A stretch of DNA of 64,000 nt, taken from Ignavibacteriota bacterium. Its GTDB lineage: Bacteria > Bacteroidota > Ignavibacteria > Palsa-1295. Positions 10,544-17,125 of this stretch are shown here, one piece after another (within the stretch, counting starts at the first letter, position 1; every line of letters begins with the position of its first letter). The stretch lies in NCBI GenBank assembly GCA_963787835.1, contig CAWBEI010000003.1:416001-480000 (forward strand), read 5' to 3'. Made by a program: the position numbers and the translations under genes. The notes beneath the pieces are model-generated. The model saw only the letters and a program-made list of their open reading frames with translations, made no database searches and was not told the DNA's origin.

Positions 10544-10756
10544 CTACGCCGACGCGTGAACGAGGGAAGGATTGGTGAAGCTAAAAGAATTCACATCGGC
10601 GCGCTTGGAGGCGTGCTCCATCGTAAGCGAAAGCAGGTTGCCGTCGCGGTCGTAATCCGCAAGTGTGTTCTCGTCAAGATCCCGCGTATCCTCCGTTCGT
10701 CCATCAGAAAAGAGAACCAATAAGGTGTCGGTATCCTGAAAGTAGCTGATTTTCAT
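10544..10756 (-). CDS. DUF2283-family protein (putative antitoxin)
   Basis: MKISYFQDTDTLLV..DLDENTLADYDRDGNLLSLTMEHAS pattern. Confidence 0.85.
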   Translation of the reverse strand: MKISYFQDTDTLLVLFSDGRTEDTRDLDENTLADYDRDGNLLSLTMEHASKRADVNSFSFTNPSLVHASA

Positions 10757-10761
10757 ATTAT

Positions 10762-11010
10762 CTATCCTTCTTTATCCGGTTTGAATCTGCGATCGAAAAA
10801 CGCATTATGAACCGTTTCTCCGTCTTCGAGTAAAACAACGCGGAGATACCTATTGTTTGCTTCGGCTATCTTGCCCCATTTTCGAATCCGTCCATCGTTT
10901 TGGATCACTTCTGATACCGGGAAATGAATGACCCGCTCGATCCATTCCTGCTTGATCCAGGCGCGGTCAGGCTCGATCCACCGGGCGAGGAAGTAGTCCG
11001 TTGCTTTCAT
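10762..11010 (-). CDS. Small DUF4258-like/RelE-fold putative toxin paired with DUF2283
   Basis: EWIERVI..P..QNDGRIRKW..RYLRVVLLEDGETVHNAFFDRRF, 5 bp upstream of the DUF2283 gene. Confidence 0.7.
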   Translation of the reverse strand: MKATDYFLARWIEPDRAWIKQEWIERVIHFPVSEVIQNDGRIRKWGKIAEANNRYLRVVLLEDGETVHNAFFDRRFKPDKEG

Positions 11011-11107: not shown

Positions 11108-11120
11108 AGAGCATTAATAA

Positions 11121-11148
11121 TGTACACCGGGTTTTAACCCGGTGTACA
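11121..11148. repeat. REP-like palindrome
   Basis: TGTACACCGGGTT-TT-AACCCGGTGTACA. Confidence 0.75.
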
Positions 11149-11160
11149 CAAGAGTAAATA

Positions 11161-11192: not shown

Positions 11193-11207
11193 GAATTATA
11201 TCCGAGA

Positions 11208-11250
11208 GATCCGCGTCATCCATTTGAATCCGCGTAATCCCGGTTCTGAC
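11208..11250. repeat. Half copy of the repeat family seen at 994-1094
   Basis: ATCCGCGTCATCC..AATCCGCGTAATCCCGGTTCTGAC resembles ATCAACGAAATC..AATCAGCGAAATCCAGGTTCAGAT. Confidence 0.55.
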
Positions 11251-11438
11251 TATTTCGTGCAGCAGCAGTCGCAGCCTTCGACGCATGGCGTGTTTGGCGA
11301 GCATTTGTCGCCGCACTTGCAATCGCAGCATGCGGATTTTGCTTTGACCGGCGCATTCGTTGCTGGAGTGTTACTGGCAAAGCTGGTTGCCGTCAACGTA
11401 AATAAAAGACCCGAGATGAAAACTAAAAGCTTCTTCAT
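11250..11438 (-). CDS. Small exported Cys-rich, metallothionein-like peptide
   Basis: 62 aa: Sec signal MKKLLVFISGLLFTLTATSFA, short linker, then CCDCKCGDKCSPNTPCVEGCDCCCTK (10 Cys). Confidence 0.8.
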   Translation of the reverse strand: MKKLLVFISGLLFTLTATSFASNTPATNAPVKAKSACCDCKCGDKCSPNTPCVEGCDCCCTK

Positions 11439-11516
11439 GTTTGTGCTTGAAAAAATTGATTTATAAAAAGTGAACTGACGTTCGTGAAAGGAACGAAGAT
11501 GTTTCCCGCCGTCACT

Positions 11517-11876
11517 TTAAATCCTCAACACAATGGTCCGCAATAATTCCAGGGCAGGCGGCCGGAACTCCGGCGGTAACCGGGAACGCAATAGAAAGAT
11601 ACTGTTCGATCGAATTCCAGACGGGAACTCGACCGGTGAAAAAAAGAAGGAAGGAAGAACGGACCGTGGTCTGGTTACGATCGAACCGACGGCAGCAACG
11701 TTGGTGTAATTGGTAGCAGGCTTACAGCATTGGCATCCGGTCGCGCAACAATTTTTCTCGCAGGCACAAGCTTTCTTTTCCATGCACTGACATTCTGTCG
11801 TGACCACGCCAATAGTGGAAACGCCCAGACACAGGCTAAGGATAAATGAAAAGAATTTAGAGAAATACATCCTCAT
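11517..11876 (-). CDS. Cys-rich HYC_CC_PP / DUF2946-like protein, putative metal-responsive leader
   Basis: Hydrophobic N-terminus, Cys cluster CQC..CAC..CC..CQCC, then Pro-rich C-terminus RLPPEFRPPALELLRTIVLRI*. Confidence 0.7.
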   Translation of the reverse strand: MRMYFSKFFSFILSLCLGVSTIGVVTTECQCMEKKACACEKNCCATGCQCCKPATNYTNVAAVGSIVTRPRSVLPSFFFSPVEFPSGIRSNSIFLLRSRLPPEFRPPALELLRTIVLRI

Positions 11877-12027
11877 ATTTATAAAACAAGATTGTAGCCT
11901 GGATACGTTCACGATACCCCCAATTGAGCGCCAATTCTGAAACATCACTCATGCCGAATCGTAGCCAGTATGAGGTAAAGTTCATCTAACTCTTTTCCCC
12001 AATACTCTCATATTATTTGATACGTTC

Positions 12028-13134
12028 TTGACGGGTTCGAACAACAGAGAAATTCAGGAACACCAGCCGTCCGGTGTTCGGTGGTCGCTTGCGCGAATAT
12101 CGCTCGTCAGCATGGGAGCGGTCGTCGCAATTGGCGGCATCGCGGTAGCATTGGATCATTATTCGATCATCCCGATCCATCGTATTGGAGGAGAGAATCG
12201 GCTTGTGTTTCGTCTGGATGCCCCGTTTGGCTCGGTCGATCTCCGCGCCGGCGCCGGGACTAATGATGTCGCAACTGTTGAGACGCTCGCGGAACAAGGA
12301 GACAACCACAATCCACAATGGTCATACGGCCTTAAAAATGGCTCGATAGGAATGCTCCGCATCGGTATTGGTACTGATGAAGGTATGATCGCGCAACCAC
12401 CAATCGCGATGTGGGAAACGAATTCCGGTTTTTCCCCTGCTGTTGCTTATGCGCCTCAGCCGGACTGGGGCGCGGCCTGCCCGCCGTCGTTCTTTTCATT
12501 CTCTATGCCTTCGATTCCCTCCGGACAGGGGTGGTATCCTCAAATGCGAGTGGTTTCTACCGACGCTGGCACTGTGATCGTCCCACAAGCAAAAGCCAGT
12601 ACAAGGATCACGCTTACAAAGGATCTTCCCATGGACATCGATGCCAACCTCGGCTTCGGAGAATCCACGGTGGATCTCACCGGGTTACCGATCACGAATG
12701 CTTCGATCGAAACAGGTGCTTCAAGGGTCCAAGTCTGCTGCAACGCTATGAACCCAGTGGCACTTCACAATTGCCGCGTGCGTGCCGGTATTGGCCCATG
12801 CACATTTTGTGGACTCTCTAATCTCAATGCAGATAACCTCAACTTTCATGGTGCGTTAGGCAGCTATCAACTCGGGTTTGAGGGAAAACTGGCCCATAAC
12901 ATGGATGCGATCGTCGATGTTGGCATTGGGATGTGTTCCATCACCATTCCTGCAACGGCTTGCAGGGTGCAAGTTTTCTATGAAGACGGTATATTCAGTT
13001 CATTCTCGTTCCCCGGTTTAGCCTATCGGCGTCCGGGCTATGAATCCAGCGTTGGGTTCGAACGGTCAAACAGCCCCATTCTTACGCTCCACCTTTCGAG
13101 CGGTGCCGGAAAGATCTCGGTGAACTACCATTGA
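12028..13134 (+). CDS. Membrane-anchored toast-rack/LiaF-like beta-solenoid protein
   Basis: N-terminal TM segment and repeats of the form NLGFGESTVDLTGL, IETGASRV, VRAGIGPC, VDVGIGMCSITIP, LSSGAGKISV. Confidence 0.65.
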   Translation: MTGSNNREIQEHQPSGVRWSLARISLVSMGAVVAIGGIAVALDHYSIIPIHRIGGENRLVFRLDAPFGSVDLRAGAGTNDVATVETLAEQGDNHNPQWSYGLKNGSIGMLRIGIGTDEGMIAQPPIAMWETNSGFSPAVAYAPQPDWGAACPPSFFSFSMPSIPSGQGWYPQMRVVSTDAGTVIVPQAKASTRITLTKDLPMDIDANLGFGESTVDLTGLPITNASIETGASRVQVCCNAMNPVALHNCRVRAGIGPCTFCGLSNLNADNLNFHGALGSYQLGFEGKLAHNMDAIVDVGIGMCSITIPATACRVQVFYEDGIFSSFSFPGLAYRRPGYESSVGFERSNSPILTLHLSSGAGKISVNYH

Positions 13135-13279: not shown

Positions 13280-15088
13280 ATGAGCTCTTCCTCCTTTGTT
13301 CGAAATCTTGCGTGTTTTACGCTGCTTTTTTTGATGTCCACCGCGTCATTAGCGGGTACGGGGCAGCAAACTTCTATTGTTCGGCAATATCCGCTTTCTG
13401 GTGCAGCTGAAGTTTCAACTGTGACAATGATCGGTATTACTGCCAATGACAGATTTTCAGAAAACCAGGTCTCGGAAAGTTTTTACGTTCTTGGATCGAA
13501 ATCGGGACGTCACTTTGGCCAGGTTCGTCTTTCGCTCGATGAAAAGACGATTATCTTCACCCCATCCGCAAAGTTCGACCTGAATGAGACCGTTTCCGTA
13601 GAATTCTCCTCTTCGCTCGCAGAAGGCCAGATCATTCGCGATACCTTCTCGTTCACCACCATCCGTCAGGACTTCTATAACACAGCCATTGGGAACTCTT
13701 CAGGGTTAGCGCTCTCAACCAAAAGCGTTTTGGATTCCGGTATGGTGTTAACTGAACCTCCTCCACCCGATTCCATGGGTTGGAACCAGGCCTGGACCGC
13801 CAATGTGAATAACAATCCCGAGCCTGGCAGGATCTTCGTTGCACTCTCGACACCAACGCCGTTCAATAACCTTCTCTGCATCATGGATCAGAATGGATAT
13901 TTGCTCGATTCTATTTACGAGCGCAATTGCTTCAATTTCCAACTCCAGACCAATGGAGAGATGACCTTCTTTAGCGTGGGTGACTCCGTGTTCTATGCAC
14001 TGGATACGAACAAGCACATCATCGATACCTTCGCTGCCGTTAATGGTTGTAAGGCCGATGGCCACGAACTGATCGTGTTCCCCGATGGAAGCTATGCACT
14101 GATAGGCATTGCATATTATACGGAGGATCTCTCAAAAATATTCCCAGACTCATCAGGTACTAAAATTGTAATTGGGAGCGTGTTGCAACGGTTCGATGCG
14201 AAGAAAAATCTGGTGTTCGAGTGGCGTGGAATAGACCATTACGCACTCACCGATGGACTTCCGTTCTATGCTGAAAGTCCGGTGTATGATTTCGAACATG
14301 CGAACTCGATCGATGTCGATTCCAACGGTAACTATCTTCTCTCCAATCGAAGCTCCAGCGAGATCACACAGATCGCTGGCACCACCGGCGACATCCTCTG
14401 GCGTTTTGGAGGGCCTCATAATCAATTTTTGGTGATCGGAGATACCCTCGGCGGCATGAGCTGCCAGCATGATGCACATTGGGGCCCACATTCGCATATC
14501 CTTGCCTTCGATAACGGTGTGTTCCACCCAACTCAGGAGAGCAGAGCCGTAGAGTATGCAATGGATACGGTCAATCATACTGCCACGCTGGTTTGGCAAT
14601 TTCATCACTCGCCTGCTGTTTTTTCCGGATCCATGGGCTCTGTTCAGAAGCTCGAAAATGGCAATTACTTTATCGGCTGGGGATTCGAAGAGTCTGAGAC
14701 CATGACCGAAGTTGCACAGGATAGTAACGTGATCTTGGATCTTGTGGGGCCGATCGTGATCTCCTATCGAGCATTGAAATACCCCCTCCCAACTTCAACC
14801 GGACTTCAAAACGTCTCGACAACGCCTGCCACATCAGGACTCTCGTTCAGTGCAACTCCAGTTCAAAATGGGTTTGACCTGACCGTCAGCACACCTGATC
14901 CTTCTGTATCTGCCATCACGCTCTCGGATGCGACGGGAAGAATAGTTTCTCGTATTTTCAGTGGCACCTTGACGGGCGGCGAGCAGCACATTTCATTTTC
15001 TACCAGCACCCTCGCTTCGGGTGCATATTTCTGCCAACTGCATACGGCCGAAGGCGATGCCATGCTTCCTCTGATGATTCTTCACTAA
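13280..15088 (+). CDS. Aryl-sulfate sulfotransferase family protein with N-terminal Ig-like domain and T9SS CTD (paralog 1)
   Basis: DGHEL, FEHANSID, SNRS, QHDA, FDNG and GSVQKLENGNYFIGWG motifs; C-terminal LASGAYFCQL. Confidence 0.85.
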   Translation: MSSSSFVRNLACFTLLFLMSTASLAGTGQQTSIVRQYPLSGAAEVSTVTMIGITANDRFSENQVSESFYVLGSKSGRHFGQVRLSLDEKTIIFTPSAKFDLNETVSVEFSSSLAEGQIIRDTFSFTTIRQDFYNTAIGNSSGLALSTKSVLDSGMVLTEPPPPDSMGWNQAWTANVNNNPEPGRIFVALSTPTPFNNLLCIMDQNGYLLDSIYERNCFNFQLQTNGEMTFFSVGDSVFYALDTNKHIIDTFAAVNGCKADGHELIVFPDGSYALIGIAYYTEDLSKIFPDSSGTKIVIGSVLQRFDAKKNLVFEWRGIDHYALTDGLPFYAESPVYDFEHANSIDVDSNGNYLLSNRSSSEITQIAGTTGDILWRFGGPHNQFLVIGDTLGGMSCQHDAHWGPHSHILAFDNGVFHPTQESRAVEYAMDTVNHTATLVWQFHHSPAVFSGSMGSVQKLENGNYFIGWGFEESETMTEVAQDSNVILDLVGPIVISYRALKYPLPTSTGLQNVSTTPATSGLSFSATPVQNGFDLTVSTPDPSVSAITLSDATGRIVSRIFSGTLTGGEQHISFSTSTLASGAYFCQLHTAEGDAMLPLMILH

Positions 15089-15301
15089 GCAGAAAAGCGA
15101 ACCGGTGTTGTGAAATTGGGCGCATGCTACTCGTATGGATGTGTCATTTCTTTATTTTTAAATATTTTTTTTGATTGAAGTCTATTAAAACATATTACTA
15201 TTTAAAATACTTTTAATTCCTTGTTATAGATTTCGTCGGCCGGGGTTTAATTGTTAGCGGTTTCCTCAAACTCGTTCAGGGTCTTACTTTTTCGTTTTGC
15301 T

Positions 15302-17125
15302 ATGGCACTCTTGTCCGTCCGATGCTTCGCCGTATTTTGTCTTTTAGTGGTCTTTGGGTCACCCCTTGTTGCGGGATCTGGAACCCATCCACTGATCCTG
15401 CGACAATACCCAATACCGGGAGCCAAAGAAGTATCGACACTGACTTCGATCGGCATTACGGCCAGCGTACCGTTCGCTCTTCCATCGAAATCCGAAAGTT
15501 TTATCGTCATTGGATCCCAGTCGGGGCTTCATGGTGGGCTCGTTCATCTGTCGAAGGACAAGAGAACGATCATCTTCGAAGCCTCCACACCATTCGATCT
15601 GAATGAATTGGTACAAGTTGTGCTTTCTTCCGCACTTTCGGAGGGTACCACAATCCGAGATACCTTCACCTTTACCACAATGCGCGACGAGCAAATGCGC
15701 TACGAGCGGAGCGCCACGTTTGCGACTCATTCTCCCCTTGGAAAAATGGTCGTGGATAACGTGGAGGATTCGATCCCGCCACCTCCTCCTCCGCCACCGC
15801 CGGACTCCATGCAATGGGCAATCGACTGGTCACCCGCGATCGATAATAACCCTACACCCGGCCGAATCTTTATCGCTACAAACACTCCCGTCCCGGCCTA
15901 TAATAATTTCCTTTTCATCCTGGATCAGGACGGGAAACTTCTCGATTATCATTTCGCCCCTTTTGCCTTTAATTTCGAGCTGCAGCCAAACGGCGAAATG
16001 ACCTATTATAGCCCCACGGGATCGTGGTACTATGGTGTGGATTCGGGCTTCAATGTTCTGGACACCTTCGCGGCGATCAACGGATGTACTACCGATGAAC
16101 ACGATATTGAAGTGCATTCGGATGGGAGCTACATCGTCCTCGGAAGAGCCTTGTACACAGAAGACCTCTCTCAAGTATTTCCCGATTCCACAGGTACGAT
16201 CACCGTCATCGGTAATGTGTTGCAAAGCTTCGACTCAGATAAAAACCTGGTCTTCGAATGGCGCGGAATTGACCATTACACACTCTCCGACGGCCTTCCC
16301 TACTATGTCCCCGCCGAGAACTTCGATTTCGAACATGCTAACTCGATCGATGTCGATACCAGCGGCAACTATTTACTTTCTAACCGCAGCTTTAGTGAGA
16401 TCACCCAGATCGATGCCACAACAGGCAACATCGTATGGCGCTTTGGTGGGCCACATAACCAATTCCTCCTCGTTGGCGACACCTTAGGACTCAGCGGCCA
16501 GCACGATGCGAAATGGTCTCCAAGTTCTACCCTTCTGGCGTTCGATAACGGGAACTTCCATCCCGATGCCGAAAGCAGAGCGGTCGAATTTGCGATAGAC
16601 ACCACGGATCATACCGCAACACTCCTGTGGCAATTCCATCATAATCCAGCTATATCCTCAGGCTCTATGGGATCCGTCGAGCGGCTTCCCAACGGAAATA
16701 CATTCATTGGCTGGGGGTTGAGCGTTCAAAATGCGATGACGGAAGTAACACCCGGCGATACCGTCATTTTTGATCTCAAAGGCCCAACGGTTGTCTCCTA
16801 TCGTGCCTTGAAGTATCCGCCATTAGTATCGGTATCGAGTATGTCCGGTGTAGCAGCAATCGAAACCCCATCAGGTTTATCCTTACATGCTACGCAGGTA
16901 CAAGATGGATATGAGTTAACAGTGAATGCAAATGCTTCATCCAATTCTTCGATCACCCTTTCGGATGCAGCCGGAAGGATAGTATTACACATCTTCGATG
17001 GGGCACTCATGCCAGGCGAACACCATATTTCATTTTCCACAGCGCAGCTTGCTTCGGGAGCCTACTTCTGCCATCTGCATTGCGGCGAAGGCGATACCAT
17101 GCTTCCACTGCTCGTTTCACACTAA
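15302..17125 (+). CDS. Aryl-sulfate sulfotransferase family protein with Ig-like domain and T9SS CTD (paralog 2)
   Basis: Same motifs (DEHDI, FEHANSID, QHDA, FDNG, GSVERLPNGNTFIGWG), colinear with paralog 1, poly-Pro linker. Start could be 15251. Confidence 0.85.
   Translation: MALLSVRCFAVFCLLVVFGSPLVAGSGTHPLILRQYPIPGAKEVSTLTSIGITASVPFALPSKSESFIVIGSQSGLHGGLVHLSKDKRTIIFEASTPFDLNELVQVVLSSALSEGTTIRDTFTFTTMRDEQMRYERSATFATHSPLGKMVVDNVEDSIPPPPPPPPPDSMQWAIDWSPAIDNNPTPGRIFIATNTPVPAYNNFLFILDQDGKLLDYHFAPFAFNFELQPNGEMTYYSPTGSWYYGVDSGFNVLDTFAAINGCTTDEHDIEVHSDGSYIVLGRALYTEDLSQVFPDSTGTITVIGNVLQSFDSDKNLVFEWRGIDHYTLSDGLPYYVPAENFDFEHANSIDVDTSGNYLLSNRSFSEITQIDATTGNIVWRFGGPHNQFLLVGDTLGLSGQHDAKWSPSSTLLAFDNGNFHPDAESRAVEFAIDTTDHTATLLWQFHHNPAISSGSMGSVERLPNGNTFIGWGLSVQNAMTEVTPGDTVIFDLKGPTVVSYRALKYPPLVSVSSMSGVAAIETPSGLSLHATQVQDGYELTVNANASSNSSITLSDAAGRIVLHIFDGALMPGEHHISFSTAQLASGAYFCHLHCGEGDTMLPLLVSH

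Follow-up and report, generated by a model that had tools for sequence, protein, structure and literature searches.

RESULTS

A leader ORF and a Cys-rich peptide gene between a promoter motif and a terminator

Within the window (the whole stretch of DNA that was analysed, 64,000 nt), the two Cys-rich minus-strand ORFs named in the original prediction are present, and they are co-oriented with a gap of 78 nt between them. The features of the locus are as follows.

11885..11910, minus strand: candidate promoter motif of ECF-sigma type, GAACG-N17-TGTT, 8 nt ahead of the leader's first ATG
11517..11876, minus strand: leader ORF, 117-119 aa, divergent HYC_CC_PP-like, dN/dS 0.20 (dS near saturation)
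11802..11855, minus strand: hydrophobic N-terminal segment of the leader, putative signal peptide or anchor, read from the sequence and kept in all aligned leaders
11724..11792, minus strand: Cys cluster of the leader, 9 Cys at residues 29-51, last CC 68 residues before the stop
11517..11564, minus strand: C-terminus of the leader, candidate arrest region, RPP at 11556-11564 and 12 more residues ending LRI, then stop
11439..11516, minus strand: intergenic region of 78 nt, weak attenuator candidate, with a purine-rich arm after the stop, a C/U-rich middle and two U runs
11250..11438, minus strand: metallothionein-like peptide, 62 aa, predicted exported, predicted mature form 41 aa, dN/dS 0.16 (dS near saturation)
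11376..11438, minus strand: putative Sec-type signal peptide, residues 1-21, ending S-F-A, no lipobox, assigned by eye from the sequence
11253..11330, minus strand: Cys domain of the peptide, CC-x-C-x-C-x3-C-x5-C-x3-C-x-CCC, 9 Cys invariant, no aromatic residue
11163..11192, minus strand: intrinsic terminator of the two-gene unit, 13-pair stem and U tail

The leader comprises 119 aa from the ATG at 11876, or 117 aa from 11870, the latter matching the length of its relatives. A basic residue precedes an 18-residue hydrophobic stretch (residues 8-25), and the Pro-rich end runs from RPP (residues 105-107) to LRI and the stop, both as originally described. The count of eight clustered Cys needs correction: the leader has ten Cys, nine of them clustered at residues 29-51 and the tenth in the hydrophobic stretch. 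The downstream ORF does encode 62 aa, with ten Cys in the last 26 residues and an N-terminus that looks by eye like a signal peptide.

The motif ahead of the leader is one that we take to resemble ECF-sigma promoters; a literature search on the ECF-type assignment of its general form, GAAC-N18-[TC]GTT, found nothing. This form precedes 10 of the 11 leader loci, in nine of them 9-14 nt before the start that is used. In the genome of the window this spacing is over-represented ahead of genes, in 24 of 1525 upstream regions (19 of 1525 for the same motif one base shorter, and 1-12 for each of nine other spacings). Many of the genes behind it encode envelope proteins, and because it is common to many unrelated envelope genes the motif is not metal-specific. 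The sigma-70 promoter scan gave no minus-strand match. Over the genome, 21 sigma-70/ECF matches exceeded the cut-off. Copies of the motif concentrate a short distance ahead of starts, and across the genome GAACG-N16/17-TGTT is depleted (7 and 19 versus ~46), a pattern which suggests an ECF-type promoter of broad use whose transcripts have very short 5' leaders. A further ECF-like motif (GAAAC ... CGTA), noted by eye at three loci, lies at 11938-11970 on the plus strand and faces a divergent 368-aa gene (12028-13134) that has no Pfam family and stands beside the pair in several relatives.

Terminator-like hairpin calls amounted to 2 sites against 1.6 expected in shuffles, and hence the support for the terminator at 11192-11163 is its recurrence in relatives: the same hairpin lies 3' of the peptide gene in the 8 closest loci, and other strong hairpins are found in two distant ones. 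With promoter motif and terminator both conserved, the pair is therefore a promoter-to-terminator unit. Short palindromic, REP-like elements (11116-11155 and 11196-11250), each with ~10 or more similar copies elsewhere in the genome, flank the terminator. Just after it, at 10544-11007, a DUF2283 gene and an 81-87-aa partner form a possible toxin-antitoxin-like pair, a position at which PIN-like genes (typed by eye) are found in the relatives G014 and G006. On the other side of the locus, 13280-17125 encodes two tandem arylsulfotransferase-like proteins, the first with an Ig-like domain and a T9SS-type tail.

The two ORFs are linked and under purifying selection

The synteny survey of relatives bears out the proposed linkage. 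The leader lies directly 5' of the peptide gene in 10 of 10 aligned loci, with a gap of 70-95 nt, and the flanking genes vary; these ten are the present genome, six of 14 genus relatives and three metagenome loci, and an eleventh, from a metagenome, duplicates G011. Among 100 related genomes, strong matches to the peptide occur in 6 of 14 genus relatives and to the leader in 7 of 14; the six genomes with both ORFs have them adjacent in every case, and a contig end truncates the seventh leader (G013). Profiles run over 300 class genomes gave no further close orthologue of the pair. A scan of genome collections recovered five of the relatives (MAGs) and one unrelated match, and a metagenome scan yielded four loci, three of them new and one the G011 duplicate, all with the leader upstream. 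Single-sequence protein searches with the leader matched only the leader itself, a search of 5.8 billion proteins returned no candidate for the peptide, and a 10-row peptide profile found one orthologue. In one metatranscriptome, a 321-nt contig with 21 differences covers the leader end, the gap and most of the peptide gene; at a depth of ~7, with neighbouring DNA covered alike and DNA carry-over possible, it is no evidence on expression either way.

Both ORFs are under purifying selection, with dN/dS of 0.20 for the leader and 0.16 for the peptide (pairwise Nei-Gojobori, 8 closest of the 10 loci, dS near saturation). The late linker of the leader drifts (dN/dS 0.56), and still the distance from CCK to PP is 54 residues in 8 of 10 loci and 51 and 52 in the two most distant, while PP 14 residues from the end and LRI-stop are kept in 10 of 10. 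The signal region of the peptide is the most conserved part of its gene (dN 0.056).

A metallothionein-like peptide with a putative signal

Metallothioneins are small proteins, about one quarter to one third Cys in CxC and CC motifs, and have no aromatic residues. The metallothionein-like make-up claimed for the peptide held in size, Cys share and lack of aromatics at all ten loci: the predicted mature peptides have 38-42 residues, 24.5% Cys and no aromatic residue. Their Cys follow the pattern CC-x-C-x-C-x3-C-x4/5-C-x3-C-x-CCC, in which nine are invariant and the tenth is Ser in one of ten loci, the 9-Cys orthologue having two His. On this composition the peptide is predicted to bind metal through its ten Cys in the periplasm. 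None of the ten members has a Pfam family, and no PDB metallothionein was matched, the only PDB match being the signal region of a cytochrome c (E 0.047). A bacteriocin-type model was matched below threshold (E 0.05, 13.9 bits against a cut-off of 40), and Atlas matches to the peptide stayed under 0.9 and are leads only. The AlphaFold model (pLDDT 54, pTM 0.20) is of low confidence apart from a helix at 3-21 (the signal), and it was not taken to a fold search. A rule-based scan of the genome for small, exported, Cys-rich products found only the peptide and one unconvincing ORF.

No metal gene stands beside the pair in any of the ten close loci, and no modifying, export or immunity gene was found near it. 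In three sister genera, six loci from five genomes encode predicted exported peptides with 7, 9, 11, 12, 12 and 15 Cys, and the four of these loci with enough upstream DNA all carry a Cys-rich leader ending RI or RL, which is of another type, with CPIC, and was missed by the leader profile. This second leader type (CC, C, CPIC, C and a GPPIYL-like end) was seen around 1400-2200 in L008, L122, L123, L124, L125 and L133. Downstream of the sister-genus peptides lie an HMA protein in two of six loci, a T9SS-tagged protein and a multicopper oxidase in three (the oxidase ORF of G028 is short and typed by likeness) and a convergent gene in one. Because homology is supported in the signal region only, we treat these peptides as context by analogy. 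A phylum-wide search with a merged peptide profile gave 11 weak matches in 300 genomes; in the nine inspected, the 10-Cys pattern occurred in none and a leader-like ORF stood upstream of one, and three were small exported Lys/Cys peptides without any leader. Two further loci (L132:1498-1991 and L139:1100-1730) encode short exported six-Cys peptides with a Cys-rich, PP-ending ORF just upstream, and belong to other families.

Searches for DsbB and VKOR found neither in any of 15 genus genomes, with controls matched in 6 of 14 and 3 of 14, and MNIO (PF05114) was found in none of five genomes searched and in no gene beside the pair. Since both the oxidising partners (0 of 15) and MNIO (0 of 5) are missing, free thiols in the periplasm of the genus are favoured. 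DsbD is present in the genome of the window. An even-Cys bias in exported proteins was also looked for; among 423 exported Cys-bearing proteins, chosen with a crude rule, even Cys counts are not in excess (0.454 versus 0.462), and those with two Cys are somewhat commoner than those with one or three. The whole genus is without a DsbB or VKOR match although many of its exported proteins are Cys-rich.

The leader is a divergent relative of HYC_CC_PP proteins

Neither the leader nor the peptide matches a Pfam or NCBIfam family at cut-off. The suggested kinship of the leader with HYC_CC_PP proteins stands as homology but not as membership of the model: the leader and two orthologues have no match on NF047658 (HYC_CC_PP, cut-off 28 bits), whereas profile comparison (hhalign) with one HYC_CC_PP member gave 96.6% probability over 104 columns, and four Cys are shared by all rows of a 20-row alignment in which three rows are HYC_CC_PP members. 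Moreover, an 8-row leader profile found 11 proteins among 1.84 billion representatives, of which the three lowest-ranked (E 2e-4 to 6e-4) score above the NF047658 cut-off and the other seven scanned have no score. By these sequence comparisons the leader is a divergent relative of the HYC_CC_PP proteins. Membership of DUF2946, also raised earlier, was not upheld, as PF11162 gave no match up to E 1; the nearest named Atlas cluster, DUF8199 at 0.94, is a lead. With the 20-row profile, all 14 genus relatives and 25 of 34 family genomes yield a family leader, and NF047658 matches 86 of 301 class genomes, the present one not among them. By the rules for CutF-like proteins in the accessible part of PMC9973294, the leader stays under 150 aa (117-119 aa), its PP starts 14 residues before the end at all ten loci, and a co-oriented next gene follows within 1000 nt (after 70-95 nt at each of the ten). 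In the leader tree, the 10 peptide-linked leaders and four other proteins share a branch with 98/95 support; given its long branches and arbitrary root, the tree is not used to put events in order.

We then turned to the wider family, for which 53 loci were assembled, 24 from the 20-row profile and 29 of the 30 best-scoring NF047658 loci (one duplicate was omitted). Two peptide-linked loci and one cut by a contig end were set aside, and the next gene was typed for the remaining 50. It was an outer-membrane efflux gene in 16, an RND pump in eight, CusF/HMBD in five, DUF3347 in three, a P-type ATPase in one, HMA in one, a TonB-type gene in seven, a T9SS-tagged protein in one and a gene of no family in eight. 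The statement that HYC_CC_PP-type leaders precede metal-handling genes is thus supported, with efflux or metal-binding genes behind 34 of 50, and a small exported Cys-rich peptide was the next gene in none of the 50. One operon (L051:3782-11687, G201) has two family leaders, one before YHS/HMA-like genes and the second before a TolC-CusB-CusA-like set. A Cys-free 147-aa ORF ending LLI-stop (G000:C2:1609458-1609901), with an outer-membrane efflux-like gene and an RND pump following 152 nt downstream, is possibly a leader with another ligand set.

Distances from the Cys to the end of the leader were taken in 49 of the 50, one with an in-frame stop being omitted. The last CC lies 63-83 residues before the stop in all 49 and 66-73 in 42 of them, with 68 in the present leader. 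An [LR]I-stop end is found in 39 of 49. The last 20 residues include PP in 34 leaders and lack it in 15. Because CC-to-stop and [LR]I-stop are kept better than PP, the stop codon is a likelier place of arrest than RPP.

The opening of the next start was computed for 28 of the 50 loci, in which that start had been assigned by eye beforehand; several of the 28 are close kin, and thus they are not 28 independent cases. Removing the RNA up to a ribosome at PP did not ease the opening, and removing it to 12 nt past the stop eased it by 3.1 kcal/mol. Blocking the 12 nt after the stop lowered the start-opening cost by 2.6 kcal/mol on average in these 28 non-peptide loci, more than any of five other windows, with gains over 1.5 kcal/mol in 16 of 28, and shuffling the same 12 nt lowered it by 2.1 kcal/mol. 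In these loci (L057-L108), base pairing is predicted between the 12 nt after the leader stop and the region around the start of the following gene, which is mostly an efflux gene. A distance of ~70 residues from CC to stop, together with the predicted pairing directly after the stop, points to ribosome arrest at the stop codon throughout the family. RPP is probably not the arrest site; as a site for the whole family it is disfavoured by the 15 of 49 relatives that have no PP in the last 20 residues and by the RNA removal to PP that eases nothing. For other exported uORFs, arrest while a stop codon occupies the A site has been shown, according to the accessible part of PMC10987492.

The gap of the peptide loci behaves differently from that of the efflux-type loci

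In the ten peptide loci start-unmasking averages 0.35 kcal/mol, against 2.6 in the 28 other family loci, and exceeds 1.5 kcal/mol in one of ten; the peptide start region is nearly open already, and CutF-type start occlusion was rejected for these loci. A Shine-Dalgarno-like word occurs in the gap of one of the ten and not at the present locus; such words are rare in this genome (14% versus 10% shuffled). All ten gaps are richer in C than in G and have at least one U5 run. A consensus RNA switch between the two genes was not found, as RNAalifold gave no consensus pair on 10 or on 6 intergenic regions. Folding z-scores of the ten gaps range from +0.4 to -3.6 and stand at -0.8 at the present locus. 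The post-stop arm anchors a loose hairpin ahead of the U runs, and a stem immediately ahead of a U run reaches P>0.9 at two of ten loci and P of 0.36 at the present one; shuffled arms fold about as well in most of the loci. Rfam gave one chance-level match (E 0.15), and Rho is present in the genome. Attenuation in the 78-nt gap appears the likeliest route in the peptide loci, and it is the weakest step of the model below.

DISCUSSION

A leader that may sense metal and switch on an exported peptide

We give a probability of roughly one half to the reading, drawn from sequence, that the leader senses a soft metal, probably copper, and switches on an exported Cys peptide predicted to bind metal in the periplasm. 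An ECF-type promoter, whose motif is observed and whose function is assumed, would start the mRNA a few bases before the leader, which would be threaded into the Sec channel during its synthesis. With 68 residues from CC to stop, and taking the lengths of tunnel and translocon from general knowledge, the Cys cluster would be just emerging into the periplasm by the time the ribosome stands at the stop codon. Metal on the cluster may then hold the ribosome at LRI-stop, with RPP, 12 residues earlier, a possible slowing site, and the held ribosome would cover the first ~12 bases after the stop. At the efflux-type relatives it is predicted to free the next start codon; since that start is already open at the peptide loci, the likelier effect there would be to block premature termination in the 78-nt gap, either at the weak hairpin and U run or through Rho. 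The peptide would be exported unfolded, lose its 21-residue signal and fold around a metal-thiolate cluster, and composition, context and the absence of DsbB and VKOR suggest that it may act as a sink or buffer.

The pair may instead be ungated, a general ECF promoter simply co-transcribing two genes whose products are both Cys-rich periplasmic buffers. The promoter is indeed common to many envelope genes, the peptide loci show neither start unmasking nor a consensus RNA switch, and leaders of this clade have 9-11 Cys in 9 of 10 loci, above most efflux-type leaders (4-9). We nevertheless consider this unlikely, because a mere buffer would not need the leader spacing that is kept, namely the CC-to-stop distance, the PP position and LRI-stop, while the linker drifts. 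That the switch reads the thiol state of the periplasm or oxidative stress, the peptide being a sacrificial thiol buffer and not a metal store, would suit a periplasm that has DsbD without DsbB or VKOR and must keep its thiols reduced, the lack of a metal gene beside the pair, and a role of metallothioneins against oxidative stress given in the accessible part of PMC7558416; with efflux or metal-binding genes behind 34 of 50 related leaders, and look-alike peptides preceding HMA and multicopper-oxidase genes, we hold it to be decidedly improbable.

The polarity of the switch could also be that of CruR, with the peptide made when metal is scarce, as a scavenger or chaperone, and metal relieving the arrest and turning the gene off. 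CruR works through Rho (PMC9426467, accessible part), Rho is present here, C exceeds G in the gap at 10 of 10 loci, and TonB-type receptors follow 7 of 50 relatives. Against this, the leaders most closely related, from the same genus and family, stand before efflux genes that need to be on at high metal, and CruR, which senses in the cytoplasm, has a spacing of 45 residues as opposed to 54-68, so that we regard this polarity as very improbable. Least probable to us, and only faintly so, is that the peptide is a disulfide-rich or enzyme-modified secreted peptide of the bacteriocin or bufferin kind. Its even Cys count (ten in 9 of 10 orthologues), the sub-threshold bacteriocin-type match and an unusually conserved signal peptide, as found in bufferin precursors in the accessible part of PMC12452194, would agree with this, but there is no MNIO enzyme in the five genomes searched, no modifying, export or immunity gene nearby and no DsbB or VKOR, and CC and CCC runs, the absence of aromatic residues and a 9-Cys orthologue also weigh against it.

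Relation to known systems

To our knowledge, bacterial metallothioneins are so far known only from the cytoplasm, and SmtA and MymT have no signal peptide. The present peptide is like SmtA/BmtA and MymT in being small, rich in Cys, without aromatic residues and without a predicted fold in the absence of metal, and differs in having a putative Sec signal and in matching no metallothionein of Pfam or PDB. Exported Cys-rich copper stores do exist, as Csp1 shows, and the accessible part of a review (PMC7558416) names the Tat-exported Csp1 as the only exported store; Csp1, however, folds as a four-helix bundle and leaves by the Tat route. Bufferins and other MNIO-modified peptides are, in the accessible part of PMC12452194, copper-related, Cys-containing periplasmic peptides with a Sec signal peptide, and in this they are alike; no MNIO gene lies beside the pair or in five genomes, and the Cys density of the present peptide is far higher.

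Among the leaders, CutF of Rhodobacter capsulatus and CutF-like proteins share with the present one a small exported Cys-bearing uORF with PP in the last 15 residues, a next gene on the same strand under 100 nt away, and periplasmic sensing during Sec export, here predicted (accessible parts of PMC9973294 and bioRxiv 10.1101/2025.02.05.636593). They differ in that CutF has one CxxxC and the present leader nine clustered Cys and a conserved LRI-stop 12 residues after PP, that the present locus has no Shine-Dalgarno and no stem over the next start, and that the cargo is a 41-residue Cys peptide and not a multicopper oxidase. In CutF, a stem-loop hides the next ribosome-binding site and is opened by the stalled ribosome (PMC9973294, in part), and stalling at the proline motif is reported in the available portion of bioRxiv 10.1101/2025.02.05.636593. 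CruR of Bordetella pertussis (DUF2946, PF11162; PMC9426467, accessible part) is alike in its export signal, its Cys motif, its C-terminal PP at conserved spacing, a constraint from Cys to PP that was shown for CruR, and a pyrimidine-rich gap that could serve Rho; CruR itself switches an importer off with copper. The present leader differs from it in lacking a PF11162 match, in having RPP and not RAPP, in a spacing of 54 against 45, and in a PP 14 against about 5 residues from the end. HYC_CC_PP (NF047658) resembles it in length, hydrophobic start, the C of HYC, CC, PP, the hydrophobic-I-stop end, a CC-to-stop distance near 70 and profile-detectable homology; the present leader nevertheless has no score on the model, has TEC in place of HYC, falls in its own clade and is followed by a small peptide gene in place of efflux, TonB or HMA genes.

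A literature search using the family name HYC_CC_PP found no paper, and it found no bacterial metallothionein with a signal peptide and no such pairing, most subscription papers being outside its scope; the accessible part of PMC8456105 does not mention metallothionein. The leader is a divergent member of a known but uncharacterised kind, and its peptide cargo is not among the leader neighbours described for CutF-like proteins in the accessible part of PMC9973294. As a wider and more tentative proposal, one that we think doubtful as a whole, HYC_CC_PP-type leaders would make up a large, uncharacterised group of sensors for periplasmic metal, each keeping the ribosome at the leader's own stop codon by means of a CC ruler of ~70 residues, with one of them here wired to a bona fide periplasmic metallothionein that a periplasm free of DsbB and VKOR makes possible.

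The fixed CC-to-stop distance and the RNA pairing right after the stop predict a toeprint at the stop codon and not at PP, a prediction that differs from the CutF and CruR models. Genes as tiny as that of the peptide are missed by gene callers, and accordingly the search of billions of proteins held no candidate. The leader family is common in Bacteroidota-related genomes, as its matches across the class indicate, and if the reading of a metal-switched pair is true, the present locus would be the smallest testable model of that family, ~700 bases from promoter to terminator, and an exported metallothionein would be added to the bacterial metal toolkit.
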